From: a virus
Taxonomy: Duplodnaviria; Heunggongvirae; Uroviricota; Caudoviricetes
Direction: 5' to 3' (one strand)
DNA: 39,673 bases
Virus record (IMG/VR): IMGVR_UViG_3300045988_165115
The notes beneath the pieces were generated by a model. That model ran no database searches and had not been told where the DNA came from. It worked only from the letters and a program-made list of their open reading frames with translations. Every line of letters begins with the position of its first letter. Position 1 is the stretch's first letter. Made by a program: the position numbers and the translations under genes. Positions 22,798 through 39,334 of the stretch are shown piece after piece.

Positions 22798-24012
22798 ATG
22801 ACAATTGCTGATGACTTATCAAGATTAGCGCAGATTATTAACGGAGCCTCAAGCAGAGTTGAGGGCTACTACACTGTCATAAGTCTTGAAGAAAGCATTG
22901 TTATTGTAAATAGTTCTGAAATAATTAGACTGTTACAATCTATAGGTTATAAAAAGGCAACAACCTGCATCGAAAATAATGAAATTTGGCTAGATCGCCA
23001 AGCTTCATCTTGGGATGATGCTATAATTTATGAGAATGTTGAGTCTTTTTGGTCTAGAGTAAACACCCAAAACGCTCTTCCGAAAAATTATATCATCGGA
23101 ACGCCGTTAATACTCCCTACTTCTAAGAATGAAAGCATCGAAAAAATCCATATTTTCTTTATGTGGAAAGATATCCTTTCATTAATTTCTGATCATCATA
23201 ACAGTGACTGCTCTGTCTTATTTTTCACCAATGAAGACAAAAGTTATACAGTCGAACTCACGCATTTTTTACAATATAGCGAGATTAATCGCTTATCGAA
23301 CTCGTCTCTTAAATATGAAATTATAAAGGAGCTTCTCGACACAATAAAAATCAATGATTTACACAAAAGCGAGCGCAAGCTCGTTATACGCTCAGCCATA
23401 AACGAAGTATTTAAAGCAAATGGTACGTTCAATTTCTTTGACTTGCTTAACTCTACTGAACTCGTCAGGAAAAAATATGATGAACTATATGAGATTTACA
23501 CAAAGAGGTTTTCTGTAAATAAAATTCTTAACGAACTCGATGAGAAAAATCTTGAGTTCACGAGTAAAATTAACGAATTCATATCATCTAATCAGACAAA
23601 AGCATTGACTATTCCCGGTGCATTAATAGCAGCTGGTGGCTTAGTGAAGGCTAATGAAACAACCGAAGCAATATTGATTATCGCAGGACTTTGGATGATA
23701 AAAAAAGTCAATTACATTTCTATTGAGATATTCAATGAAACATTCGACAACTTACGTTCTCGAGTGGAGTCCGCTTTCGATAAGTATTTAAAGTTTGAAG
23801 AAAATAAAGAAATCAAAGATAATGCAGATAGTATTAAGAGTAGCATTACAGGTTTGATTGATAAAGCTAAAAAAAGGATGAGAACTGTTAAATATCTCGC
23901 ATCAGCCATGTTTTATGGAGGCCTTATTTACGTTGGATATAAACAGTTCCCAGTCTTTTTTGAAAAATCGGCAGTAAATCTATTTTATTTTTTATGCCAT
24001 ACTATAAGCTAA
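22798..24012 (+). CDS. hypothetical membrane-associated protein, second gene of the cargo operon
   Basis: 404 aa; ATG 2 nt after the upstream stop; hydrophobic segments LTIPGALIAAGGLV, AILIIAGLWMI and YLASAMFYGGLIYVGY; 3' end overlaps the Q 3' end by 21 nt. Confidence 0.55.
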   Translation: MTIADDLSRLAQIINGASSRVEGYYTVISLEESIVIVNSSEIIRLLQSIGYKKATTCIENNEIWLDRQASSWDDAIIYENVESFWSRVNTQNALPKNYIIGTPLILPTSKNESIEKIHIFFMWKDILSLISDHHNSDCSVLFFTNEDKSYTVELTHFLQYSEINRLSNSSLKYEIIKELLDTIKINDLHKSERKLVIRSAINEVFKANGTFNFFDLLNSTELVRKKYDELYEIYTKRFSVNKILNELDEKNLEFTSKINEFISSNQTKALTIPGALIAAGGLVKANETTEAILIIAGLWMIKKVNYISIEIFNETFDNLRSRVESAFDKYLKFEENKEIKDNADSIKSSITGLIDKAKKRMRTVKYLASAMFYGGLIYVGYKQFPVFFEKSAVNLFYFLCHTIS

Positions 24013-24363
24013 CATTGCTAAACAGCCATCAACAAACCCCATTGCAGTTTGCAGTTCCTTCCTAATTGTGCCATCAGAGCATTTTCTCTTCTTCGCAATA
24101 GTGCGTAATGAGATACCGATAACAAAGTGGGCGATGATGAGCTCATATTCCTCTGGTTTATACCTTCTCAACCGAGCCACACAACTGTCTATCATGATGC
24201 CTTCGTCATCATCACACTGAATCCGTGACTTTTTGCCATGAGGTAAAAGTCCCTTGAAACCAGCCGCTATCGGCTGCCAGTCCACTCCGCTATTGTCTGA
24301 AGCAGCCCAAGCTCCCCAACGATCCATTACTTCATACATATCACGCATCAACTTTCTCCACAA
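23992..24363 (-). CDS. late-gene antiterminator Q
   Basis: 123 aa; ...MDRWGAWAASDN...WQPIAAGFKGLLP...CDDDEGIMID...CSDGTIRKELQTA... matches the Q (QuuD-like) family pattern as recalled. Confidence 0.75.
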   Translation of the reverse strand: MWRKLMRDMYEVMDRWGAWAASDNSGVDWQPIAAGFKGLLPHGKKSRIQCDDDEGIMIDSCVARLRRYKPEEYELIIAHFVIGISLRTIAKKRKCSDGTIRKELQTAMGFVDGCLAMLAYSMA

Positions 24364-24365
24364 AA

Positions 24366-25361
24366 TCAGGCCAACACACCAATTGCCAGCGCACGATCGA
24401 TAAAACGAAATATCAACTCCAGCTGGGAGCCATACTTCTCTTCAAATGCCACGGTATCCGCATGCAGCTCGTCGTGATGCTTTCTGCACAAAGGCAGCAC
24501 AAAGAGATCATGCTCTTTTGTACCCATTCCCCCCTGACCGTGGCCTATCAGATGGTGGGGATCATCAGCAGGCTTTCCACAACATGCACACGGCTGCGTC
24601 TTAACCCAGCGCGTGTACTTTTCATTAACCCAGCGGCGACGTTTTGGGCGTAACATAAAAGACTCCGGCGACTCCGGATCCACTTTCAGCGCCAGCACCT
24701 TTTTAGCTTTATCCTGGATGATGCTGGTGGCAGGAACCGAAGGCACAAGGTCACTTTCCCGGGTGACAGATGGCACAACAGGCTTCGGTAATCTCAGTGC
24801 CTTACGGGCTGCACTTTCCGGTAAGGCATCCGCCAGATCATTACGAACCAGCCACCAGCACAGTTCCGGCATTGTCACAACGTGACTGTCATCAAAACCG
24901 AGATCCCGACGCACGACAGACAACACCCAGCGGGCACAGTTATCCGTTGCCATTGATTCCAGCCGTTCCGTGAACTGGTCACGCAGCTGGTTATCGCAGT
25001 GCCAGCACAGACGAATTGCTCCCGGAGCGTGCCGCATTGTGGTCATGTTCTCGCTGTGCCAGTCAGAATGAGGCCACTGACAGCCCTTTTCACGAAGTAA
25101 CCAGCTTTCAAGACATTCCACGCCACCAGCACGACGGATCACTGCCTCATTGCGGAACACGGTCCGAACGGCAGGATCATCCGCCAGCGGTTGTGATGCC
25201 GCCGGAACGGCACCACTGGCGAAAGATGAATAACGTTCCGGCTCTGGCTCCAGCAGGACACGCCCCTGCATAAACAGGGGCATCAGCTCTGAACCTGGCC
25301 TGAACAATACGATCCCCATACGCGGGGCAATTTCAGGCGTCAGTAGTGCTCTCACGGTCAC
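24366..25361 (-). CDS. DUF968/YdfU-like protein with a C-terminal HNH-like zinc-finger motif
   Basis: 331 aa; C-terminal CACCGKPADDPHHLIGHG...LCRKHHDELH; immediately upstream of Q. Confidence 0.55.
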   Translation of the reverse strand: MTVRALLTPEIAPRMGIVLFRPGSELMPLFMQGRVLLEPEPERYSSFASGAVPAASQPLADDPAVRTVFRNEAVIRRAGGVECLESWLLREKGCQWPHSDWHSENMTTMRHAPGAIRLCWHCDNQLRDQFTERLESMATDNCARWVLSVVRRDLGFDDSHVVTMPELCWWLVRNDLADALPESAARKALRLPKPVVPSVTRESDLVPSVPATSIIQDKAKKVLALKVDPESPESFMLRPKRRRWVNEKYTRWVKTQPCACCGKPADDPHHLIGHGQGGMGTKEHDLFVLPLCRKHHDELHADTVAFEEKYGSQLELIFRFIDRALAIGVLA

Positions 25362-25362
25362 C

Positions 25363-26160
25363 TCAATGAACGGTATCGAGTAGCTTTAACAGCTCAGGGA
25401 ATCGGGATTCGAAGAAATGCGGCTGCGTCTCGCGCGGATTTGCGGGACTGGTGATGTTCTTGCCGAACATGCAGCCTTTCGCCGTCAGCGACCAGAATTT
25501 TTTGATGTTGTTAATCGCGGTACGGCTGTATCGTTCGCGCTGCTCGACGATCCCCAGCTTCACCATCTGGTGATATGCCTGATTAGCTGTCAGGCGGATA
25601 CCATACTGCTTCAGCAGTGCACTCAGTGACAGCGTGGGGCGGCTTGAGCCATCAGGCGCGTCAGCAGGAGCATCAATGGCATAGCGCGGTGCCAGATTCG
25701 GTAAGCCAACAGCCTCCTGGAGTTTCTGACAGGCTCCAAGCACTGAAGAGTTAGACAGATTTAACTCCCGGCGCATAAAGTCCAGCAGAATCACGCCAGC
25801 CTGCATCTTGTCAGCAGCCTGTCCGGATAATTTTTCAGGTGCGCTGGTTACCATGTCGAAAGTACGGATCACCTTCAGATGGAATGACGGGCTGATCCAC
25901 ATTGCATAGGCATACACCAGTTCTTTGCAGACATACGTCCCCTGGTTATTTCCGCCACGAATAACGTTAACTGGCTCTATATTGACCGAGTTGCAAATCT
26001 GCAACTCGCTTATTAAACGTTCAGTTTGCTCATTGCGGAGCCAGAATGCAGGCTTATGCTTATCCAGAGAATCGGCAGCCCTGTGCAGATCGTTCAGGCT
26101 GTAACGACCATAAGCATCACGACGAACTTCAATACCATCAATGACCATCAGATTATTCAT
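25363..26160 (-). CDS. KilA-N domain protein
   Basis: N-terminal MVIDGIEVRRDAYGRYSLNDLHRA... fits the KilA-N pattern; nin-region position. Confidence 0.5.
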   Translation of the reverse strand: MNNLMVIDGIEVRRDAYGRYSLNDLHRAADSLDKHKPAFWLRNEQTERLISELQICNSVNIEPVNVIRGGNNQGTYVCKELVYAYAMWISPSFHLKVIRTFDMVTSAPEKLSGQAADKMQAGVILLDFMRRELNLSNSSVLGACQKLQEAVGLPNLAPRYAIDAPADAPDGSSRPTLSLSALLKQYGIRLTANQAYHQMVKLGIVEQRERYSRTAINNIKKFWSLTAKGCMFGKNITSPANPRETQPHFFESRFPELLKLLDTVH

Positions 26161-26179: not shown

Positions 26180-26569
26180 TCAGGCGGCTGCACCCGCCGG
26201 TTTCTCGTACTTACTGATAGTGATCTCAACCTTCCCTTCCGGGATAACCGGTCCCCACTCCACCAGCATTCTTTTCACCTGACTGTCGTCTTCCCACACA
26301 CCCGCGTGGGTCAGGGCGTCAAACAGCGCCTTGTTATAGTTGTCCAGATCGCGGATCCGGTTATCCGGAGGAAACAACACGATCTCCACTGAAGCAGGTG
26401 CCGACGTTGGTTTCGGCAGACGACGTAACTGCTCAACTATTGCTGCGCACGCCGCGCTCTGAAATTTTCGCCCCGCCTCGCTTATCAGGCTCTTACCAGC
26501 AAATGCCCCTTTGTTGGGGTGTCGCCAGTACGTGTTCACACTGGGCGGGAAAGGAAGGATCAACTTCAT
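26180..26569 (-). CDS. rusA: RusA-family Holliday junction resolvase
   Basis: 129 aa; motifs PPSVNTYWRH and RDLDNYNKALFDALTHAGVWEDDSQV match the RusA family. Confidence 0.85.
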   Translation of the reverse strand: MKLILPFPPSVNTYWRHPNKGAFAGKSLISEAGRKFQSAACAAIVEQLRRLPKPTSAPASVEIVLFPPDNRIRDLDNYNKALFDALTHAGVWEDDSQVKRMLVEWGPVIPEGKVEITISKYEKPAGAAA

Positions 26570-26892
26570 ACTTTCAGGCCCCTCTCATGTAACCAGTGGG
26601 CTGCACGCAACCTAGCGTTCTCCTCAGCGGCAAGCAGTGCGCGGATGATACCGACCGCTTCGCTGTCGTCGTCCTTCACTGCGGTATGAAGCGTGATCCC
26701 CCGGGCCACGCCACGCTTTATCGTGATGACGCCTTTTTTCTCCAGTGCGCGAAGATGCTCCACCGCTGCATTCACTGAACGGTATCCCAGCATGGTTGCC
26801 ACCTCCTGATTGGTTGGCGGGAAGCCACGTTCTTTCTGGTAAGAAATCAGCATATCCAGCACCTGCTGCTGGCATTGAGTTAACGTCGTCAT
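26566..26892 (-). CDS. LexA N-terminal DNA-binding-domain-like protein lacking the S24 peptidase domain
   Basis: LTQCQQQVLDMLISYQKERGFPPTNQEVATMLGYRSVNAAVEHLRALEKKGVI closely parallels the LexA winged-helix domain; only 108 aa, no Ser/Lys peptidase region. Confidence 0.65.
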   Translation of the reverse strand: MTTLTQCQQQVLDMLISYQKERGFPPTNQEVATMLGYRSVNAAVEHLRALEKKGVITIKRGVARGITLHTAVKDDDSEAVGIIRALLAAEENARLRAAHWLHERGLKV

Positions 26893-27542
26893 GCCGCCAT
26901 CTCCCTGACCAGTTTTTCCGCCTGCTGGCGAACCTGTGCCAGAAAGGCCTCACCACATGCCTCAAGTTCATCGCGCCCGATGTAGCTGATTGCCGGTCCC
27001 TTCCAGGTCTTGTCGAAAACAGCAATAGCACCAGCGAAGAAAGCGCCTGTCGGCACCTGCTTCTCATCTTTCGGGATAAACCAGGCAGGCAGTTCAAAAC
27101 CAATACGCCCGCGAATAAAAGCAATATGGTCTGCATCTTCCGGCCACCACACTTCGCTGGTGGCAGCTTTGATCAGGAAAACATAGCGCCCGCCTTTATC
27201 ACGCATGGCACCGGCATGTTTCATGATGTAACGCATGCCGGTGATGTATTGCCCCTCATGCTGACTGGCGCGACTGTATGGGGGATTACCAAAGGCAGCA
27301 CCTTTAAGCTCCGCAAGACGTTCTGACCAGTCATGCGCCAGCGCGTTGTCTTCCGCCGTGTAATACGCGGTACATTTGGCGTTATCACCGTCAGTAAACA
27401 GATCCAGGACAAACGGGCCAAACAGGGTGTTAATTCCCCAGAAAATGTTATCCGGCGTGCGCCACTGATCGCCCACTTCCTTCAGTTCATGGGCTGGTTT
27501 GTTCCGCAGTTCCACCAGCGCCCGGCAATATTTATTACTCAT
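26889..27542 (-). CDS. phage DNA N6-adenine methyltransferase (Dam-like); start set to the internal MSNKYCR
   Basis: NPPY catalytic motif (GNPPYS); TAATG stop/start overlap with the upstream gene at 27542. Confidence 0.75.
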   Translation of the reverse strand: MSNKYCRALVELRNKPAHELKEVGDQWRTPDNIFWGINTLFGPFVLDLFTDGDNAKCTAYYTAEDNALAHDWSERLAELKGAAFGNPPYSRASQHEGQYITGMRYIMKHAGAMRDKGGRYVFLIKAATSEVWWPEDADHIAFIRGRIGFELPAWFIPKDEKQVPTGAFFAGAIAVFDKTWKGPAISYIGRDELEACGEAFLAQVRQQAEKLVREMAA

Positions 27543-28036
27543 TAAGCCCCCACGTAATTCCCTGACAGATACCACTCTTCACCCGATGCAGCGCGCTTGC
27601 TGCTTTTCCGTAAGCACCGCTCACGACGTGCCAGAAAATTGTTTCGTTCTGGCTGGGAGTGGCTTTCACGGAATGCCGCCATCCACACGGTTGCAGCACG
27701 ACGGTATAAGCCCCTTGACTCCAGTTCTTCAGCCTGGCGGGTCAGGCATAAAATCACCCGGGGATCGTTAGTGCCGACATAGAAATTGCGCACAGGTCTG
27801 GTTTCACGAACTGGTTGTGGTTCCGGCTCCTGCGCTCTCTCAGTCAGGCGCGGGAAATGTCTGCGTGTATCTCCTTCACAACGGTGAGCCACACGCCCAC
27901 TCTGACGTAACTTGCTTGCTGACTGCAGAACGCGCTGCCGTGAGTAACCTGCAAAAGCATCCGCAATGTCTCCGGAAGTACAGCCCGGATGGGCTTCAAT
28001 GAATTTCTGAACGTCATTCAAAAGACTCATGCTCAC
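27542..28036 (-). CDS. hypothetical regulator, winged-helix-like N-terminus and PerC-like C-terminal segment (tentative)
   Basis: 164 aa; C-terminal LESRGLYRRAATVWMAAF resembles the PerC family signature as recalled; overlaps the replication gene stop. Confidence 0.35.
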   Translation of the reverse strand: MSMSLLNDVQKFIEAHPGCTSGDIADAFAGYSRQRVLQSASKLRQSGRVAHRCEGDTRRHFPRLTERAQEPEPQPVRETRPVRNFYVGTNDPRVILCLTRQAEELESRGLYRRAATVWMAAFRESHSQPERNNFLARRERCLRKSSKRAASGEEWYLSGNYVGA

Positions 28037-28974
28037 CCCCTGAATCCTGCCGGGATCTGGCTGTAGTCCACATTGTCGTAACTGGCTTTGAAGTACGGGT
28101 CTTCGCGTTTTTCTGTGTACGTGCTGACGGACGGCGATAAGCGCAGGGAAAGCTCATCCCATTTTTCCCGCAGCTTCGACGGGCTGAGCACGTTACGGCA
28201 CCAGAACGGATCGCGGCTGACGCGGCTGTACATCTCGCAGATTTGTTTGTGAGTACGACCATCCTGCACACACATCAGGCGAATTTCGTTTGCCCAGGCT
28301 GTCCAGTTCGGTTCTTTGGGACGAACCACCTCGCCGTCACATTCGGCAGCCTGCTCGTACAGGGCGATGATTTTTTTCCAGAGCCACTGTGCGCAGGTCA
28401 AATCATCCTGCGTCCCCCACTGGCGCTTTTTAGGGCTGAATACAACCGCATCAGGATGGCGAGTTAAAAAATCCTGTTCAGCCGTCTGCGTGTCCGGTTG
28501 CGAAGCGTCCGGACGAGAAGTTTTTTTATCTGACGGATCATGTTTTGATTTTACTGACGGATCCCCGCCAGATTCTGACGGGTGAAAACCCGCTTTTTTG
28601 CCAGATTTCGACGCATCAAATTTTGACGGGTCAGATTTTGATGCGTCAGATTTTGACGGGTCAGAATCTGACAGTTGAGAAAATGCCGCTGCCTGAAGCT
28701 TCGCAACGTTAAGCTGATAAACATTCGACGCATTGCGGTTACCCTGGCGACGCGCCTTACGCGTTAACCAGCCTTCTGCTTCCAGCCGTGCGATAGCCGT
28801 TCTGACGGTACTCATCCCCGCGCCAATCTGACGGGCAATGGTTTTAATTGATGGCCAGCACACACCTTCGTCATTACTGAAATCAGCCAGGCGGGCCATA
28901 ATTGCCACGCTGGATAACTTCATGCCTGATGCAGCGCAACCATCCCATACATAGCCGGTTAATTTAGTGCTCAT
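28033..28974 (-). CDS. replication initiator / replisome organiser (lambda O-like) with internal iterons
   Basis: 313 aa; winged-helix N-terminus, a central SDPSKSDASKSDPSKFDASKS repeat encoded by the DNA iterons, and a conserved C-terminal domain. Confidence 0.7.
   Translation of the reverse strand: MSTKLTGYVWDGCAASGMKLSSVAIMARLADFSNDEGVCWPSIKTIARQIGAGMSTVRTAIARLEAEGWLTRKARRQGNRNASNVYQLNVAKLQAAAFSQLSDSDPSKSDASKSDPSKFDASKSGKKAGFHPSESGGDPSVKSKHDPSDKKTSRPDASQPDTQTAEQDFLTRHPDAVVFSPKKRQWGTQDDLTCAQWLWKKIIALYEQAAECDGEVVRPKEPNWTAWANEIRLMCVQDGRTHKQICEMYSRVSRDPFWCRNVLSPSKLREKWDELSLRLSPSVSTYTEKREDPYFKASYDNVDYSQIPAGFRG
28528..28678. repeat. iteron array, putative replication origin inside the initiator gene
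   Basis: At least six direct repeats of about 15 bp, consensus CAGATTTTGACGGG, at 28569, 28601, 28616, 28631, 28646 and 28661, the last four with a 15-bp period. Confidence 0.7.
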
Positions 28975-28983
28975 GACCGACCT

Positions 28984-29322
28984 CTATTTCCCTGAATTTA
29001 CGACGAAACTGTTCGAGCGGACTGAAGCATTCATGCTCATAACCTTCGCGGAGGTAGATAACCCGTTGTGTTTCCGGCTCCCAACGAATGACTCTGACGG
29101 GCACTCCGTAGTGATCTTTGAACCAGCGGTTAACTTGTCGCAAAGGACTGTCTCCTTCTGCCGGTTGAAATCACCCACAGCCCACTCTGCAAAGCTGTGG
29201 GTTACAATTTCCCTGTCACCTGGTACATTCACTGCATAGCAATATTCCACCTTCGCTTTTCCACCCGGTACCGGAAGCGCAATCAGTTGCGAGCGACGGT
29301 AGTGTGTTGTTAAACTGTTCAT
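28984..29322 (-). CDS. hypothetical early-operon protein, positional equivalent of e14 ymfM
   Basis: 112 aa between the YmfL-like gene and the replication initiator. Confidence 0.4.
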
Positions 29323-29876
29323 GCGTTAGTTTCTCCACAACCAGAAGCAATCGACGCCACGACGCCCGGAGCTGCACACTCGCGGGCGTCATTACTTTCT
29401 GAAATGCAAAAAATTTTGTAGACAAGTGCTGCATGCTCCTGCAGCTTCGAAATTGAGAGATACAGCTCGTCGTTAATTGCTGTCTTCTCATGCGGTTCCA
29501 CTACACCGTCTTCGATTGCTGAACGAATCTGTTTTGAATAACTGCCGATCTGTTCAATGACTTCCAGCAGACGCTGGTTAATATCGGCGTTGTCCACATC
29601 CTCGACGTCAGGAAGAGACACAAAGACGCCATTTGCAGACTGCGCCACAGCATCAGCAATGAAGTGAGTGCCACCAGCACGCTGTAAAACCATTGCCCAT
29701 CCCAGCGGGAAAATCTGATCGCCATCTGCACGAAGGCGGTTGAATAAAGCGTTTTCTGTTACATCGAGCCAGTCAGCCGCTTCAGCGTAACCACCCGGCA
29801 ACGCCGCGATAGTTTTTCTGACAGCTTTCACGTACCACTCAGGCTGTTTTTCTATTTTCCAGTGATGCTTACCCAC
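29319..29876 (-). CDS. hypothetical early-operon protein, positional equivalent of e14 ymfL / lambda cII
   Basis: 185 aa directly downstream of cro with overlapping stop/start. Confidence 0.45.
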
Positions 29877-30129
29877 GGTTCACCTCCTGTTCCTGTGGTT
29901 TAAACCCATTCTGATTTTGGCTAGATTGAAAACGTGCCGGATAAAGAATCTGCATTTCGCTGACTTCACCCTTAAAAAAATTGGCTAAACGTTCTGCAAG
30001 CTCGATAGATGGAATCTGCTCCAGCCTCTCAATACGACTCAACGTCGCTGGATTGACTTGAACACCCGCAGCAACATGCTGCAAAGTGAAACCATGCGCC
30101 TTACGCACATTTCGTAATGGTGATTGCAT
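29869..30129 (-). CDS. Cro-like HTH (XRE-family) regulator
   Basis: 86 aa; helix-turn-helix LQHVAAGVQVNPATLSRIE; divergent from the cI-like repressor across a 97-bp operator region. Confidence 0.8.
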   Translation of the reverse strand: MQSPLRNVRKAHGFTLQHVAAGVQVNPATLSRIERLEQIPSIELAERLANFFKGEVSEMQILYPARFQSSQNQNGFKPQEQEVNRG

Positions 30130-30140
30130 ATACCCTCCAA

Positions 30141-30226
30141 ATATTGCGCGTTATGCATGTTATTTCACGCAATTATTTTGCGCAAGTTGATTTGCTTATC
30201 ACGCAATAAAGAAATGTAATAAACGC
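30141..30226. promoter_or_regulatory. cI/cro divergent operator-promoter region with repeated TTGCG/CGCAA half-sites
   Basis: Half-sites at 30144 (TTGCGCG), 30166 (CACGCAA), 30178 (TTGCGCAA) and 30200 (CACGCAA); 15-bp palindrome CGCAATTATTTTGCG at 30168-30182. Confidence 0.6.
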
Positions 30227-30919
30227 ATGAACATAGGAAACCGAGTCAGACAACTTCGCCAAGCGAAGAACATGAAAATCGCCGATCTCGCTGAAGCAAT
30301 AGGAGTAGATGCGGCGAACATCTCGCGCTTAGAAACGGGTAAGCAAAAACAATTTACCGAACAAACACTGAGTAATATTGCCAAGAGCTTAGGTGTTGAT
30401 ATTGCTGATCTCTTTACCTCTGCCCTCAAAAGTAATACTGTATATAAAAACAGTAATAATGAGGATGTTGCGCAGGTGAAGGATGTGTTCCGTATTGAAA
30501 TGCTGGATATCAGTGCCAGTGCGGGAAATGGCCTTATCCAGGGCGGTGATGTCATTGATGTGATTCATGCCATCGAATACAGAACTGATAATGCTGTATC
30601 AATGTTCGGCGGACGACCAGCCAATCACATCAAAGTTATCAACGTTCGTGGGGACAGTATGTGTCCAACCATTGAGCCAGGAGATCTCATCTTCGTTGAT
30701 GTCAGCATCAATCAGTTTGATGGTGATGGTATATATGTCTTTGGTTTTGATGACAAAATATACGTTAAAAGACTTCAAATGATTCCTGACAAACTGCTGG
30801 TGATTTCTGATAACCAGATTTACCGTGAATGGGGAATTACTAGCGAAAACGAACACCGATTCATGGTCTTTGGAAAGGTCTTAATCAGTCAGTCGCAAAC
30901 CCTTAAGAGACATAATTAA
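30227..30919 (+). CDS. CI-like prophage repressor (HTH_XRE plus S24 LexA-like autopeptidase)
   Basis: N-terminal HTH (NMKIADLAEAIGVDAANISRLETGK) and C-terminal S24 motifs (GDSMCPTIEPGDLIFVD ... KRL). Confidence 0.9.
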   Translation: MNIGNRVRQLRQAKNMKIADLAEAIGVDAANISRLETGKQKQFTEQTLSNIAKSLGVDIADLFTSALKSNTVYKNSNNEDVAQVKDVFRIEMLDISASAGNGLIQGGDVIDVIHAIEYRTDNAVSMFGGRPANHIKVINVRGDSMCPTIEPGDLIFVDVSINQFDGDGIYVFGFDDKIYVKRLQMIPDKLLVISDNQIYREWGITSENEHRFMVFGKVLISQSQTLKRHN

Positions 30920-30938
30920 CCTCAATATCCCATCCATC

Positions 30939-30963
30939 GGCCACCGAAAGGTGGCTTTTTATT
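30939..30963 (+). terminator. rho-independent terminator downstream of the repressor gene
   Basis: GCCACC-GAAA-GGTGGC hairpin followed by TTTTTATT. Confidence 0.75.
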
Positions 30964-31196
30964 ACCCATCATTTTGCATATATCGCAATATTACTTGCAT
31001 ATCTCGCAATTTAATTTTATCTTTTGTTCCAGACCAACTACAGGATTACAACAAAATCTGGTTGCAAAACGGTGCATGTGTCGTAAGCGGTCAGTAAATG
31101 TCAAAAACGAACAGGCAGGACGCCCACGAAGTAGCAGCCTGGGGCATATGAAGTCCAGGATGATTCGTTAGCGGATGATTTCAGTGGAGAGAATAG

Positions 31197-31505
31197 ATGA
31201 ATGAGCAGGATTTGAAGCATGTGATCGCATTGTTGCTGGAAGACGCTAAACGTTTGCAGCAGATAGAGCCAAATGCAGGCACTGAGGCCCGTATTTTGTT
31301 AGCAAAACAGGCATTAAAGACTTGCGAGGCGCAAGACCCTGATCGAACCAAGTTCATGAATTTCATGGCTAACACGATCACCCCACTGCCATGCAATGGA
31401 GAGAGGGTGAGCCGTGTTTATCACGACACAATGGTTAAGGCATTAAGAATCGAGCTTGATGGGCTTAGGCGTAAGATCGTGATGAACAAAATCGTTGCCA
31501 ACTAA
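31197..31505 (+). CDS. hypothetical protein, positional equivalent of e14 ymfJ
   Basis: 102 aa; GGAGA Shine-Dalgarno 6 nt upstream of the ATG. Confidence 0.5.
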   Translation: MNEQDLKHVIALLLEDAKRLQQIEPNAGTEARILLAKQALKTCEAQDPDRTKFMNFMANTITPLPCNGERVSRVYHDTMVKALRIELDGLRRKIVMNKIVAN

Positions 31506-34021: not shown

Positions 34022-34282
34022 ATGAGGTTATCAAAAATGCTTCAAATGCTGACACTTGAGGAATGGGCTGCGGAAAAATTTAGGAGTAATCCTCCAAGTG
34101 TGTCCACATTGCGTCGTTATGCTAAGCAGAATTTATTTTGTCCACCAGCAATGAAACAAGGTCGACTCTGGCGAGTACGTGAGGACGCAGAGTTAGTTGG
34201 GGAATTAGTTACTCCAGTAATCAAGAAAAGTGATTCTATTATTCTGCAAAGGATTTTAAGCAATGGCAGCCAGACCACGTAA
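34022..34282 (+). CDS. xis: excisionase (lambda Xis-like); start uncertain, alternative ATGs at 34037 and 34046
   Basis: LTLEEWAAEKFRSNPPSVSTLRRYAKQNLFCPPAMKQGRLW parallels lambda Xis; overlaps the int start. Confidence 0.7.
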   Translation: MRLSKMLQMLTLEEWAAEKFRSNPPSVSTLRRYAKQNLFCPPAMKQGRLWRVREDAELVGELVTPVIKKSDSIILQRILSNGSQTT

Positions 34283-35390
34283 AAATAATGTTTCAGTACC
34301 TAACTTGTATCCGCTTTATAGTAGAAAAGTAAATAAAGTCTATTGGCGATATAAGCATCCAGTGACCGGGAAATTTCATTCGTTGGGCACAAATGAAGCT
34401 GAAGCTATTGCTATTGCCACTGAAGCTAACACTCGTCTGGCTGAGCAAAGAACCCGGCAGATTCTAGCTATCAGTGATAGGATCGCAACCAGCAAAGGAA
34501 AAGCGATCACAACGTCAACCTGGTTAGATCGCTATCAAGCGATCCAGGATGACAGGCTCAAAAGTGGTGATATAAGACTCAACACCTATAAGCAAAAAGC
34601 TAAACCAGTATCCTTGCTCAGAGAACGAGCAGGAATGAAGTTGATCTCATCCGTTGATGTTAGAGATATAGCACAATTGCTTGATGAGTATATTGCAGCT
34701 GGACAGCCTAGAATGGCCCAAGTCGTTAGGTCTGTATTGATCGATGTGTTTAAGGAAGCACAGCATTATGGCGAAGTTCCGCCAGGGTATAACCCTGCTC
34801 TTGCGACGAAGCAACCCAAAAGAAAAATTACCCGTCAACGCCTCAGCCTGGAAGAATGGCAAAAAATATTCGATATAGCAGACGCCAGTCATCGTTACAT
34901 GGGAAATGCCATGCTCCTAGCTTTGGTCACTGGGCAGCGTTTGGGAGATATATCCAAAATGAAATTTAGTGATATTTGGGAAGATCATCTTCACGTCATT
35001 CAGGAAAAGACTGGAAGCAAAATCGCTATCCCTCTTTCTCTTCGCCTCAATGCGATTAACTGGAGTTTACGCGATGTAATAGCCCGCTGCCGTGACTATG
35101 CAGTCAGCCCATACCTAGTGCATTTTTTCCGTTCAACTTCACAAGCAGAACGTGGGGCACAGGTTAAATCCAATACATTGACGATGAACTTTAGTAAAGC
35201 GAGAGATTTAGCAGGAATTGACTGGGGTGATGGCTCACCCGCAACATTCCATGAACAAAGATCGTTATCTGAACGCCTGTACAAGGAGCAAGGGATAGAT
35301 ACCAGAAAGCTACTTGGGCATAAAACACAACAACAAACCGATCGTTACCATGATGACCGAGGGAAAGGTTGGAGCAAAGTAGCTTTGTGA
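34263..35390 (+). CDS. int: tyrosine site-specific integrase, lambda Int family
   Basis: 375 aa; catalytic-region motifs (LALVTGQRLGDISKMKFSD; HEQRSLSERLY; LLGHKTQQQTDRYHDDRG) align with lambda Int. Confidence 0.9.
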   Translation: MAARPRKNNVSVPNLYPLYSRKVNKVYWRYKHPVTGKFHSLGTNEAEAIAIATEANTRLAEQRTRQILAISDRIATSKGKAITTSTWLDRYQAIQDDRLKSGDIRLNTYKQKAKPVSLLRERAGMKLISSVDVRDIAQLLDEYIAAGQPRMAQVVRSVLIDVFKEAQHYGEVPPGYNPALATKQPKRKITRQRLSLEEWQKIFDIADASHRYMGNAMLLALVTGQRLGDISKMKFSDIWEDHLHVIQEKTGSKIAIPLSLRLNAINWSLRDVIARCRDYAVSPYLVHFFRSTSQAERGAQVKSNTLTMNFSKARDLAGIDWGDGSPATFHEQRSLSERLYKEQGIDTRKLLGHKTQQQTDRYHDDRGKGWSKVAL

Positions 35391-35600: not shown

Positions 35601-36716
35601 TTAAATTAAATCAAATAGCCCATGTTCATCTATAGCCTTTGAACTAATTAAGTTCGCGGCTTCTATGTCATTGTCACTTGCCTCAGAAATAAGGAAAAAT
35701 GAATCAACATGATTTTGCAAAATAATTTCCTTATACTTCTTGAGCCATTGTAATTTACCTGTAGTGAACAATACTTTACGCGGTAGCAAAATACGGCTAA
35801 AAACTGATGGAAGATACTCACTTCTATTAAATGGAATAAAAGGGTCGCCTAAAGAAAGAATAGTTAGACGATTAAATTCACCGTGCGAATTCAATTTTTC
35901 AGCTGATTTGGCTATACCACTTGGTAAAAAAACACCTGTCTTGATACCGTTGCGTAAAGCAACAACAGCCATCATTTTATCAAAGGCAGTACCTCCAAAT
36001 AATAAGGAATATCCTTTTTTAACAGAAAGATCAATAGTATCAAGAACAACTTGTTTTTCTATATCACTTGGTGACGTGCTCGAAATTATCGAAAGATCAA
36101 AATCAGTAAATAACTGCCCAGTATAATAAAGATTTTTGCCGGTGAAAGTTGACAACTTTAAAGGAAACATTTTATCATCATGCTTAATTTCAGATACATT
36201 AAGATCTGTTAAGGATGGATAGTTAAAGTTTGGTGAGGCTTTTCCGTGTTTATTATTTTTTGATGCCTGCGGACTAAAAACTAGAATTTCATTTTTATTA
36301 TTACACAGGTAATCCTGTATCATTTTTTTTACAATATCCCAATCAAGACCACCGTGACCACAACCTAAAGCTGGCAGGGTGATTGTTTTTCCATGTTTAT
36401 TATCCAAATATTTCGAGAGCCAATGCAGTCCTTTTTCGATATATTCGTACTTAGACTTATTTCTCCAATGATCCTTGGTGGGAAAGTTTATGATTTCTAT
36501 TTCCTTACCATACGTATCATTACCTTTCCAAACAGCTGGTCTTCCTGGAGATATTTCTCCTTTTTTACACAGCAATACGTATTCATTATACATTTCAGGA
36601 AACTTATTCTTAAAAGCAAAAGCAACCCCTGCCCCCATTACACCAACACAATTAACTGTATTAATTCTAATGTCAGCAGCATAATCGAAAAAATCACCAT
36701 CAACATATCTAATCAT
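35601..36716 (-). CDS. macrodomain protein (TARG1/DarG-type) with a C-terminal Rossmann/SLOG-like domain; candidate DarG-like partner
   Basis: Start set at MIRYVDG, preceded by AAGGAGG; macro motifs GDFFDYAADIRINTVNCVGVMGAGVAFAFKNKF and LPALGCGHGGLDW resemble TARG1/DarG; C-terminal LLFGGTAFDKMMAVVA glycine-rich loop; AT-rich. Confidence 0.6.
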   Translation of the reverse strand: MIRYVDGDFFDYAADIRINTVNCVGVMGAGVAFAFKNKFPEMYNEYVLLCKKGEISPGRPAVWKGNDTYGKEIEIINFPTKDHWRNKSKYEYIEKGLHWLSKYLDNKHGKTITLPALGCGHGGLDWDIVKKMIQDYLCNNKNEILVFSPQASKNNKHGKASPNFNYPSLTDLNVSEIKHDDKMFPLKLSTFTGKNLYYTGQLFTDFDLSIISSTSPSDIEKQVVLDTIDLSVKKGYSLLFGGTAFDKMMAVVALRNGIKTGVFLPSGIAKSAEKLNSHGEFNRLTILSLGDPFIPFNRSEYLPSVFSRILLPRKVLFTTGKLQWLKKYKEIILQNHVDSFFLISEASDNDIEAANLISSKAIDEHGLFDLI

Positions 36717-37186
36717 AAAACCTCCTTTGGTCAGAGTATACATCCTTATTTCTGGCTCTTCAATTCTATTGTCAAAAACTTTTACAAAGTCTGCATCAGT
36801 AAAACTGATGGCGCATTTTAAAATTAAAATCAATATGTCCATATCAAACGTTATATTTGTTATTTTTTGTATTTATTATTCATATCCATCATGTGCTATT
36901 AAATCGCCCAAAAGAACATAATAAATTATGTGCACCACTTTCTTCTTATTGAATTTTGGATTACATTACGATCTAAATTAGATCTTTTGCCAATATCATA
37001 AACATATGCAGCAAACGTTGCAACAAGCTGTTCTCATTCTAACAGTTAGTAGAATATAAACTCTGTAATTAGCACACTGAATTCCCTTCATCTATGAGTT
37101 ACAACATCCTTTAAGTGAATAGTATTGTTAGTTTAAATCTATTAATATCATTCATAAAACTATTTTATATAGTTAAAGTCATTATA

Positions 37187-37214
37187 AATCCATCTGAATA
37201 TATACAGATGGATT
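37187..37214. repeat. perfect 10-bp inverted repeat in the intergenic gap between the DarT-like and macro genes
   Basis: AATCCATCTG - 8-nt loop - CAGATGGATT. Confidence 0.5.
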
Positions 37215-37423
37215 CTGCCAATAGTCTTTGCAGGTGAAGTGCATGTTATATATTTTTTAGGGAATATATTTTCTAATTATTTCTCAGATAAAAATTTGCA
37301 GAACGAAATTACTTTACATAATACCGAATGTTACAGATTATTTTATTGCATATAAGCATTGAACTAACCACTATCACAGTGACTATGTTAATCATAAAAT
37401 CTGCATCAAATTCAAAAAGCTCC

Positions 37424-38770
37424 TCATAAACTGTTCCCCTGCAATCTTTGGAGAACTTCATCCCGGAGATCATCGATCCCGTCAGAAACCTGAGCTAACC
37501 AAACTTGACTTAATGAGCCAATATCAGCCTTACTTAGGGCTACTAACATATTGATATCTTCAGAAGATGTAACTATATCGAACAACTGATTTTTATTCCT
37601 CCCTTTAGCTACTATTTCCCCCAATAAATCATCATACGTAACTAACATCATTATTTTTCTAACTAGATCGGTTTGTATGACTGGCAGATCTTCTGTCAAA
37701 ATTCGTTGTAGCATCGCAAGTGACTTCCTAGGATGCTCTCCATCTGCCTCATGCATGTAATTATTATTCCAACGTGTTTTAGGCCCTTTGCCTATATCAT
37801 GCAAATAAGCGGCCAACTCCAAAACTTCCTGATGAATAGAGTCTAATTGATAAAACTCTGGTGAATTAACTACAAGACTAGCCACTCGTCGACTATGAGA
37901 GCCAACATCTTCATTATGAGGCCCGTAGCTCGTCCCCAATCCATCGATATCTTCAAGCTCTTGGATGGAGGAGAAATTACCACGAATTGCACTTAGAGCA
38001 TCACTAATACTTTGAAATTTTGGCCTCGTTTCTCGTTGAAATGAAGTTACATATTCAATAGCTTCATCAAAAAGCATTTTTAACACTACCGGTCCCGTGA
38101 CTAAGGATGAGGACCAGTTTCCAGGTTGATAATAATAATGTTGAAAATCACCCTCAACAATATTTGGTGGAACAATACCTTTGTTCTGGAAAATACTCCT
38201 CACAATATCAGACATAGAACGATTCCATGTAATTATCTGATTTATTTCGCTTAAAGAGACATGATCTGGCAGCAAAAGTTCTGCCATCTTTTTATGCCTC
38301 TGAGTCTCGTCAGCATAACCCCATGCATTATTATCTATGGTAGCCCAATCTAATACATCAAGCTGGTCAGCTTGAGTATTACCAGAATAAAAGTTCGGTG
38401 GATTAACTGTATTTGCGGAAGCATCTGTAAAATATGACCCATTCCTTGTTTCGAGTGATAATATAGAAACTGAAAGATAGATAATAAATTGCTGATCTAC
38501 ATTTTTTTTATGAAGAACAGACAATTGCATGGGCGTTTTTTTTGCAAAATAAAAAGGAACATAATCATGAACACAACGACCATTCGTATTAGGCACCTGC
38601 ATCACTGCCCTACGCCCCTGTATTCCTTCATCAGCAACATTCACATGTGATATACGACGTGCAATTTTCTGATTAGTCGAAAACAGCCCAGTTTCAATTA
38701 TTGATTCAAGATTATCTACTGACGTAAAGTGATATGCATTTCGGTGTCTATGGTGAACAGGAACTGTCAT
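37424..38770 (-). CDS. DarT-like (DUF4433) DNA ADP-ribosyltransferase domain fused to a C-terminal HD phosphohydrolase domain
   Basis: N-terminal YHFTSVDNLESIIETGL, HDYVPFYFAKKTPM, YFTDASANT and AELLL match DarT motifs including the catalytic glutamate position; C-terminal H...LHDIGKG HD signature; GGGGGA Shine-Dalgarno upstream. Confidence 0.6.
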   Translation of the reverse strand: MTVPVHHRHRNAYHFTSVDNLESIIETGLFSTNQKIARRISHVNVADEGIQGRRAVMQVPNTNGRCVHDYVPFYFAKKTPMQLSVLHKKNVDQQFIIYLSVSILSLETRNGSYFTDASANTVNPPNFYSGNTQADQLDVLDWATIDNNAWGYADETQRHKKMAELLLPDHVSLSEINQIITWNRSMSDIVRSIFQNKGIVPPNIVEGDFQHYYYQPGNWSSSLVTGPVVLKMLFDEAIEYVTSFQRETRPKFQSISDALSAIRGNFSSIQELEDIDGLGTSYGPHNEDVGSHSRRVASLVVNSPEFYQLDSIHQEVLELAAYLHDIGKGPKTRWNNNYMHEADGEHPRKSLAMLQRILTEDLPVIQTDLVRKIMMLVTYDDLLGEIVAKGRNKNQLFDIVTSSEDINMLVALSKADIGSLSQVWLAQVSDGIDDLRDEVLQRLQGNSL

Positions 38771-39112
38771 GTATCCCCCATGAAAAACTATAAAAATTTA
38801 GGTAGTGTGCTTTATATTATTACAGTAATTGTAAATTACCGATATAGGATATCAACCTTCCTGTGATCTAGGTCACTCAGGATGAGCAACTTCCTATTGA
38901 TTAGGATTCAAAATGTTTGAAATGTGCGCTTACAGAACCACAGGCCACTTTGAGCGAAGAACAGACCTAAATATAAACGAGGGTTAATCAGCAATAATTA
39001 TAATAAACTGAGGTATGCCTAATTGGAACTTGACAATATAACTACCATCTCTCCCTAAACAACTAGGAGTTTTGATAACTTATTTTGATAAAATTTTGAT
39101 AACCGTTAGCAG

Positions 39113-39171: not shown

Positions 39172-39334
39172 TTACATATTCTTGATGATCGCATCACCAA
39201 ATTCTGAACATTTCAGCAGTTTAGCACCTTCCATCAGACGTTCGAAGTCATAGGTTACGGTCTTCGCGTTGATTGCGCCTTCCATACCTTTAACAATCAG
39301 GTCTGCGGCTTCAGTCCAACCCATATGGCGCAGC
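39172..39334 (-). pseudogene. icd: 3' terminal fragment of isocitrate dehydrogenase gene icd (about 54 codons), attachment-site copy for the e14-like phage
   Basis: Minus-strand translation [54 protein letters not shown] matches the Icd C-terminus; similarity stops abruptly at about 39334. Confidence 0.8.

Follow-up and report, generated by a model that had tools for sequence, protein, structure and literature searches.

The window, the whole 39,673-nucleotide stretch of viral DNA analysed here, carries an SfII-like lambdoid prophage whose cI region is 99% identical to that of Shigella phage SfII. Its minus strand carries an early-right (nin-like) operon in the order cro, cII-like, O-like, PerC, Dam, LexN, RusA, KilA-N, DUF968 and Q, where LexN is the name given here to the protein under study. 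The counterpart of LexN in SfII is SfII_44, annotated as 'LexA DNA binding domain protein'. The genes of the operon and the elements of the LexN gene are as follows.

29869-30129, minus strand: cro
29319-29876, minus strand: cII-like gene (PF06892)
28033-28974, minus strand: O-like replication protein
27542-28036, minus strand: PerC/YfdN-like gene
26889-27575, minus strand: phage Dam-type N6-adenine methyltransferase, upstream of LexN (PF05869, E=4.6e-45)
26900-26905, minus strand: Shine-Dalgarno sequence GGGAGA of LexN, within the end of the Dam gene and 7 nt before the ATG (read from the sequence)
26566-26892, minus strand: LexN gene, 108 codons for 108 aa, ATG start (ORF list)
26689-26892, minus strand: LexN residues 1-68, LexA-type winged helix-turn-helix (PF01726, BLASTP, AF2/Foldseek)
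26737-26778, minus strand: LexN residues 39-52, recognition helix SVNAAVEHLRALEK (alignments and the contact list of PMC3091678)
26584-26670, minus strand: LexN residues 75-103, two amphipathic helices, putative dimerisation module (AF2, conservation)
26180-26569, minus strand: RusA Holliday-junction resolvase, downstream of LexN (PF05866, E=5e-15)
25363-26160, minus strand: KilA-N gene
24366-25361, minus strand: DUF968/HNH gene
23992-24363, minus strand: Q-type antiterminator (from the SfII annotation)

The LexN gene is tied to both of its neighbors by ATGA overlaps, one at 26889-26892 joining the LexN start to the Dam stop and the other at 26566-26569 joining the LexN stop to the RusA start. 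The initial annotation had described LexN as translationally coupled to the Dam and RusA genes. We rejected the coupling as a clue to function, because start/stop overlaps or 1-2 nt gaps are found at most junctions of this operon in the ORF coordinates, so that those of LexN are no sign of a special tie to Dam or RusA. Beyond the downstream end of the operon, a 404-aa ORF on the plus strand (22798-24012) adjoins Q in the opposite orientation; it had no Pfam or PADLOC match and looks like a moron or cargo gene.

The N-terminal part of LexN is a LexA-type DNA-binding domain. Residues 1-65 matched the full PF01726 (LexA_DNA_bind) model with an E-value of 2.8e-19 and a score of 69 bits (cutoff 23.7), and BLASTP aligned the protein to residues 1-68 of E. 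coli LexA without gaps, with 35 of 68 residues identical (51%); its sequence matches in the PDB were exclusively LexA. The AF2 model, for which an alignment of 13 family members served as input, had a mean pLDDT of 87.6 and contained helices at residues 6-22, 28-35 and 40-52, wing strands at 56-58 and 66-68, a low-confidence linker, and two further helices at 75-87 and 93-103. Foldseek superposed the head of this model on the LexA-DNA crystal complex 3JSO with an rmsd of 0.9 Å over 68 residues. The Pfam scan gave no Peptidase_S24 match to LexN, which stops at residue 108, and the NCBIfam equivalog model for full-length LexA, TIGR00498, aligned at model positions 1-90 of 203 only and reached 67 bits, below its cutoff of 111. 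The initial description of the 108-aa protein as a LexA winged-helix domain with a short non-catalytic tail in place of the peptidase domain agrees with all of these results.

The stretch aligned with the Ala84-Gly85 cleavage site of LexA reads LLAAEE in the LexN of the window and contains A-G or A-N in relatives, and in the AF2 model it lies in a confidently predicted helix. We considered whether it might be a relic cleavage site, given that most relatives have LLAGEE where LexA has VAAGEP, and rejected the idea in view of the A-A of the window, the A-N of other members, the confident helix and the lack of a catalytic domain. Since LexN has neither a catalytic domain nor an Ala-Gly site, RecA*-stimulated self-cleavage would not be expected. 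Among the hallmarks of a canonical LexA, LexN therefore has the winged helix and lacks the S24 domain, the cleavage site and an equivalog-level score. Membership in a defence system was also considered and rejected, as PADLOC related LexN to a CARF model only weakly, through its wHTH (E=3.5e-4).

In E. coli LexA, the DNA-contacting residues of helix III are Ser39, Asn41, Ala42, Glu44 and Glu45 (PMC3091678); the Asn41 contact has been described further, together with the need for a pair of CTG motifs spaced by ten base pairs (PMC5999292). Alignment of LexN to LexA, the check that the initial annotation had pointed to, found these residues largely conserved: four of the five are kept (S39, N41, A42 and E45), and E44 is replaced by V44. 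The recognition helices of LexN (SVNAAVEHLRAL) and LexA (SPNAAEEHLKAL) are identical at 9 of 12 positions, and LexN also keeps H46 and the wing residues R64-G65-I66. In the tail-bearing family (n=13), S39 is present in all 13 members, N41 in 12, A42 in 10, E45 in 8 and E44 in none; such constancy of S39 and N41 indicates that LexN would read DNA sequence-specifically. Judged from its helix, the E. coli subgroup looks able to read CTGT-type half-sites. Across the whole family, the same comparison suggests a recognition specificity that is not uniformly LexA-like, because five of the 13 tail-bearing relatives have G, D, L, I or T at residue 45 and the Citrobacter form, 66% identical to LexN, has the helix SVNTITGHL with residues 42-45 altered (T42, I43, G45).

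The last ~35 residues of LexN form a tail whose two helices, 75-87 and 93-103, are amphipathic and modeled with a pLDDT of ~90. Its hydrophobic positions I83, L86, L87, A93, A97 and L101 are kept in relatives of 38-48% identity, and the tail is under constraint in the comparison with the Citrobacter homologue (pN 0.26, pS saturated). We read the two-helix tail as probably a dimerisation module, each copy providing half of a four-helix bundle, because this is the simplest reading of two helices that form a free hairpin behind a flexible linker. Foldseek found no convincing structural partner for the tail; in a comparison with dimeric wHTH repressors that dimerise through C-terminal helices (BlaI/MecI-, MarR- and MntR-like), the whole-length matches of LexN to MepR, MntR and Rv1846c were weak (E 4e-3 to 2e-2, rmsd 6-10 Å). 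The isolated N-terminal domain of LexA binds its operator weakly, and fusing LexA(1-87) to a heterologous zipper yields a functional repressor of SOS boxes in the E. coli two-hybrid system, one that does not depend on RecA.

LexN is widespread. Of 5426 complete E. coli genomes, 2233 (41%) carry its 327-bp gene at >=90% identity, and thousands of E. coli records annotate it as 'LexA family transcriptional regulator'. Further carriers are Stx2a- and Stx2c-converting phages, Shigella phages, serotype-converting ones among them, and induced coliphages. LexN is thus a protein that has already been annotated, and it belongs to a known kind, the protease-less phage homologues of LexA. Residues 1-108 match PHROG 362 ('transcriptional repressor') over all of profile positions 1-106 of 106 (E=7.5e-59); we found no experiment behind the word 'repressor' in that name, and a search of the full-text literature found no functional study of this coliphage family. 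Close relatives (65-97% identity) come from Escherichia, Shigella, Citrobacter, Salmonella and Hafnia, and the distant relatives retrieved by profile search (38-48% identity) are 104-135 aa long and likewise consist of a head and a tail; both the length and the C-terminal end are kept throughout the range of 38-97% identity. A scan of genome contigs for the close family returned five loci, two in Shigella flexneri and one each in Citrobacter, a 326-bp contig labeled 'Fredinandcohnia' and a Verrucomicrobiia MAG, the last matching residues 1-68 only at 41% identity.

Comparison of LexN with the Citrobacter homologue gave a pN of 0.20 against a saturated pS of 0.79, with a dN/dS of ~0.09 in the N-terminal domain; the gene is under strong purifying selection. 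The low pN beside a saturated pS, with constraint on both head and tail, marks LexN as a functional gene rather than a remnant. Two database versions of LexN, P0024 and P0030, contain short internal out-of-frame stretches, for example KKRRHHDKAWRGPG replacing KKGVITIKRGVARG; such stretches have the look of frameshifts that were compensated, or of sequencing errors, and not of true variants.

To describe the neighborhood of the gene we used 80 IMG/VR viral loci with LexN at >=97% identity. LexN lies upstream of RusA-DUF968 in every one of these loci long enough to include them, and its constant neighbors are tightly packed coding genes, namely RusA, DUF968 and mostly PerC and KilA-N, with variable immunity and Q modules around them. 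A relative of 42% identity (L004), in another lambdoid prophage, has the order P, LexN, a 67-aa ORF, RusA, DUF968 and Q. No conserved non-coding DNA travels with LexN across the 80 loci; targets in the host chromosome, or scattered targets, would therefore fit better than one private operator.

We scanned the window for SOS boxes with a weight matrix made from 25 E. coli SOS boxes. The top site lies inside the repressor gene of the prophage and is a candidate target of LexN.

30227-30919, plus strand: cI-type repressor with HTH and S24-like C-terminal domain, 99.6% identical to SfII cI
30436-30455, no strand assigned: SOS box TACTGTATATAAAAACAGTA, candidate LexN target, inside cI codons ~70-77 (PSSM score 26.7 bits)

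With 26.7 bits, TACTGTATATAAAAACAGTA equals the best site of the training set, and it is identical to the umuDC operator of E. coli K-12 in 20 of 20 bases. It sits in the variable cI linker between the HTH and the S24-like domain. The box is kept in all 22 loci with this cI type, which amounts to about 22 of the 80 LexN loci; the remaining loci have other immunity regions without a cI-internal box. Further cI-internal boxes are at 6282-6301 in L002, ~5303-5322 in L085 and 1707-1726 in L091. A strong box occurs at the same offset in the cI genes of ST64B (83% amino acid identity), Klebsiella phage 1 LV-2017 (70%) and Fels-1 (51%), and is not present in the cI of a Yersinia phage (49%). In an alignment of five cI sequences, 16 of the 20 box positions are invariant, and the linker codons beside the box diverge or cannot be aligned. 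The box could act as a LexA roadblock on the PRM transcript or as an SOS-controlled internal promoter. The idea that it drives an SOS-induced fragment consisting of the C-terminal domain only, starting at Met92, was rejected, as ST64B has ATA and the Klebsiella phage GTA at this codon and a promoter scan of 29800-31200 gave no sigma-70-like promoter. Our literature search found no paper on an SOS box inside cI, and we regard the umuDC-type operator within the cI of SfII, ST64B, Fels-1 and Klebsiella phages as a finding in its own right, which may be more interesting than LexN. We also rejected the idea that LexN and the cI-internal box must occur together: no LexN lies within 5-6 kb of the box in ST64B or Klebsiella phage 1 LV-2017, and most LexN loci are without the box.

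A second strong box, TACTGTAAAAATAAACAGTG or a near-identical variant, occurs in about 20 of the 80 LexN loci ~4-5 kb downstream of LexN, these ~20 being counted by near-identical sequence and the gene context being that of L008 alone. In L008 (10651-10670), the box overlaps codons 3-9 of a gene for a 350-aa DNA methyltransferase downstream of Q, and it is read in the same frame as the cI box, as N-T-V-x-x-x-N-S.

Elsewhere in the window, a DarT-DarG toxin-antitoxin/defence pair (35601-38770, minus strand) lies just past the prophage integrase (34263-35390). DarT (37424-38770) has an added HD domain, and DarG (35601-36842) is a macro-domain protein. An SOS-like site of moderate score, TGCTTTATATTATTACAGTA (38808-38827, 15.8 bits), lies 38 bp upstream of the darT start and has CTT in place of CTG in one half-site. 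A 50-aa ORF follows at 39172-39324 on the minus strand; its C-terminus resembles that of isocitrate dehydrogenase (icd) and may correspond to it. The icd gene is a known lambdoid attachment locus.

From the fold, the absence of the protease, the conserved contact residues, the position in the operon and the purifying selection, all of which are shown by the analysis, we infer a dimerising tail, a specificity for SOS boxes and a physiological consequence. We propose, tentatively and at somewhat less than an even chance, that LexN is a dimeric, uncleavable LexA-type repressor that re-occupies SOS-box-like operators in lytic growth. In this mechanism, LexN would be made as a delayed-early regulator, co-transcribed with cro, cII, O, PerC, Dam, RusA and Q from the rightward early promoter. 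Residues 1-68 would read DNA via a recognition helix nearly identical to that of E. coli LexA, the C-terminal hairpin would take over the dimerisation role of the LexA S24 domain, and the dimer would most likely sit on operators of the CTGT-N8-ACAG (SOS-box-like) form. LexN would still be bound once RecA* has destroyed the host LexA, because the peptidase domain is absent; RecA-independent binding of SOS boxes is plausible. As an outcome, SOS-controlled host genes, co-resident mobile elements and phage-borne boxes such as the umuDC-type box in cI may be re-repressed during lytic growth. GIL01 gp7 is a functional precedent for a phage that gains by holding LexA sites occupied after damage (PMC9700832). 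Against the proposal, most LexN phages are without the cI box and phages that bear it may lack LexN.

Variation among the contact residues is one argument for the most serious competitor of this proposal. LexN could be a phage-specific regulator with an operator of its own that acts on phage promoters and not on host SOS boxes, an explanation that we consider rather unlikely while giving it real weight. A precedent exists in gp6 of the Bacillus tectivirus GIL01, an activator of the late promoter P3 with a distinct binding site (PMC6182141), and stand-alone LexA-head proteins are widespread in unrelated phages. The variation in the recognition helix points the same way and counts against an SOS-box specificity: the family always loses E44 (0/13 keep it) and replaces E45 in 5/13, and the Citrobacter form has changed residues 42-45 though the LexA of its host should share the box. 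The E. coli subgroup, however, shares 9/12 recognition-helix residues with the host LexA, and a co-inherited private operator is not visible among the loci, where the immunity and Q/late modules vary and no non-coding segment is conserved. The same contact residues, with expression from the early operon at a time when aiding induction benefits the phage, would also suit a protein that binds SOS half-sites or boxes and competes with LexA without repressing, thereby serving as a de-repressor or modulator of SOS that helps induction. We judge this to be distinctly improbable, since a protein bound to an operator that overlaps a promoter normally represses, and since competition gains little in an induced cell in which LexA has already been cleaved.

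Two further explanations depart from operator binding altogether. LexN might act mainly by contacting other proteins, such as RusA, Dam, DUF968 or a host factor, and use its winged helix as an interaction surface or a non-specific DNA tether; the order LexN-RusA-DUF968 is held even in the 42%-identity relative, with its 67-aa ORF between LexN and RusA. Gene order in nin-type regions is generally conserved, however, and S39 and N41, which contact bases, hardly vary in the family, and we place this explanation slightly below even the de-repressor in probability. That LexN is a functionless, decaying remnant of a captured lexA is suggested by its being a truncated homologue of a host gene, and is extremely improbable: the selection analysis (pN 0.20 against saturated pS, dN/dS of ~0.09 in the head) effectively rules it out, and the conserved length and end at 38-97% identity, the full-length PHROG family and the Shine-Dalgarno sequence of its own speak against it as well.

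The SOS response triggers prophage induction and Shiga-toxin release. An early lytic, RecA-insensitive LexA-like binder could alter this response with regard to mutagenesis, filamentation, toxin modules and the induction of rival prophages, and LexN could also serve as a natural uncleavable LexA tool. In its strongest form, which we regard as unlikely, the proposal would make LexN an SOS shut-off and commitment factor that re-occupies host SOS boxes upon prophage induction. If so, recA, umuDC, sulA, SOS-induced toxins, LexA-controlled rival prophages and colicins would be silenced, LexN on the cI-internal operator would block new repressor synthesis in phages of the SfII, mEp460 and Stx2a_1447 type, and Stx-phage induction and prophage competition would be influenced in about 40% of E. 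coli strains. Should LexN instead have a private operator, it would be simply one more small phage regulator.

Compared with E. coli LexA (3JSO, 1LEA), LexN shares the winged helix with S39, N41, A42, E45, H46 and the wing RGI in common, whereas the S24 peptidase/dimerisation domain, the Ser119/Lys156 dyad and Ala84-Gly85 of LexA are all missing from the LexN of the window. LexN further differs by V44, by the two-helix tail in place of S24 and by its location in an early lytic phage operon. The LexA(1-87)-leucine-zipper fusions resemble it in combining a LexA head with a small dimerisation element; the fusions are artificial and carry an authentic LexA head, whereas in LexN the tail would be the dimerising part.

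Among natural proteins, the best-characterised analogue that we found is GIL01 gp6, a 66-aa truncated LexA homologue. Like LexN, gp6 is encoded by a temperate phage and has the LexA DNA-binding domain but no protease domain; it acts in lytic development by binding its own site at P3 and activating transcription (PMC6182141). Unlike gp6, LexN has a helical tail and a host-like recognition helix. BLASTP gave no alignment between the two at E<=100, which indicates that they were derived independently. Unrelated phages often encode small proteins of this kind: the viral structure library BFVD contains many phage proteins of 65-90 aa that consist of the LexA head alone. Meanwhile, six metagenomic proteins of 140-220 aa (P0126, P0130, P0135, P0137, P0153 and P0176) carry two LexA heads in tandem without a peptidase domain, and could be single-chain pseudo-dimers that cover a whole palindromic operator without dimerising. 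In its proposed outcome, LexN comes closest to GIL01 gp7, which keeps LexA operators occupied after DNA damage and thereby damps host SOS genes and a co-resident prophage (PMC9700832). The likeness is one of proposed outcome and not of homology: gp7 is an unrelated small protein that acts via the host LexA, whereas LexN would accomplish as one polypeptide what the gp7-LexA complex does.
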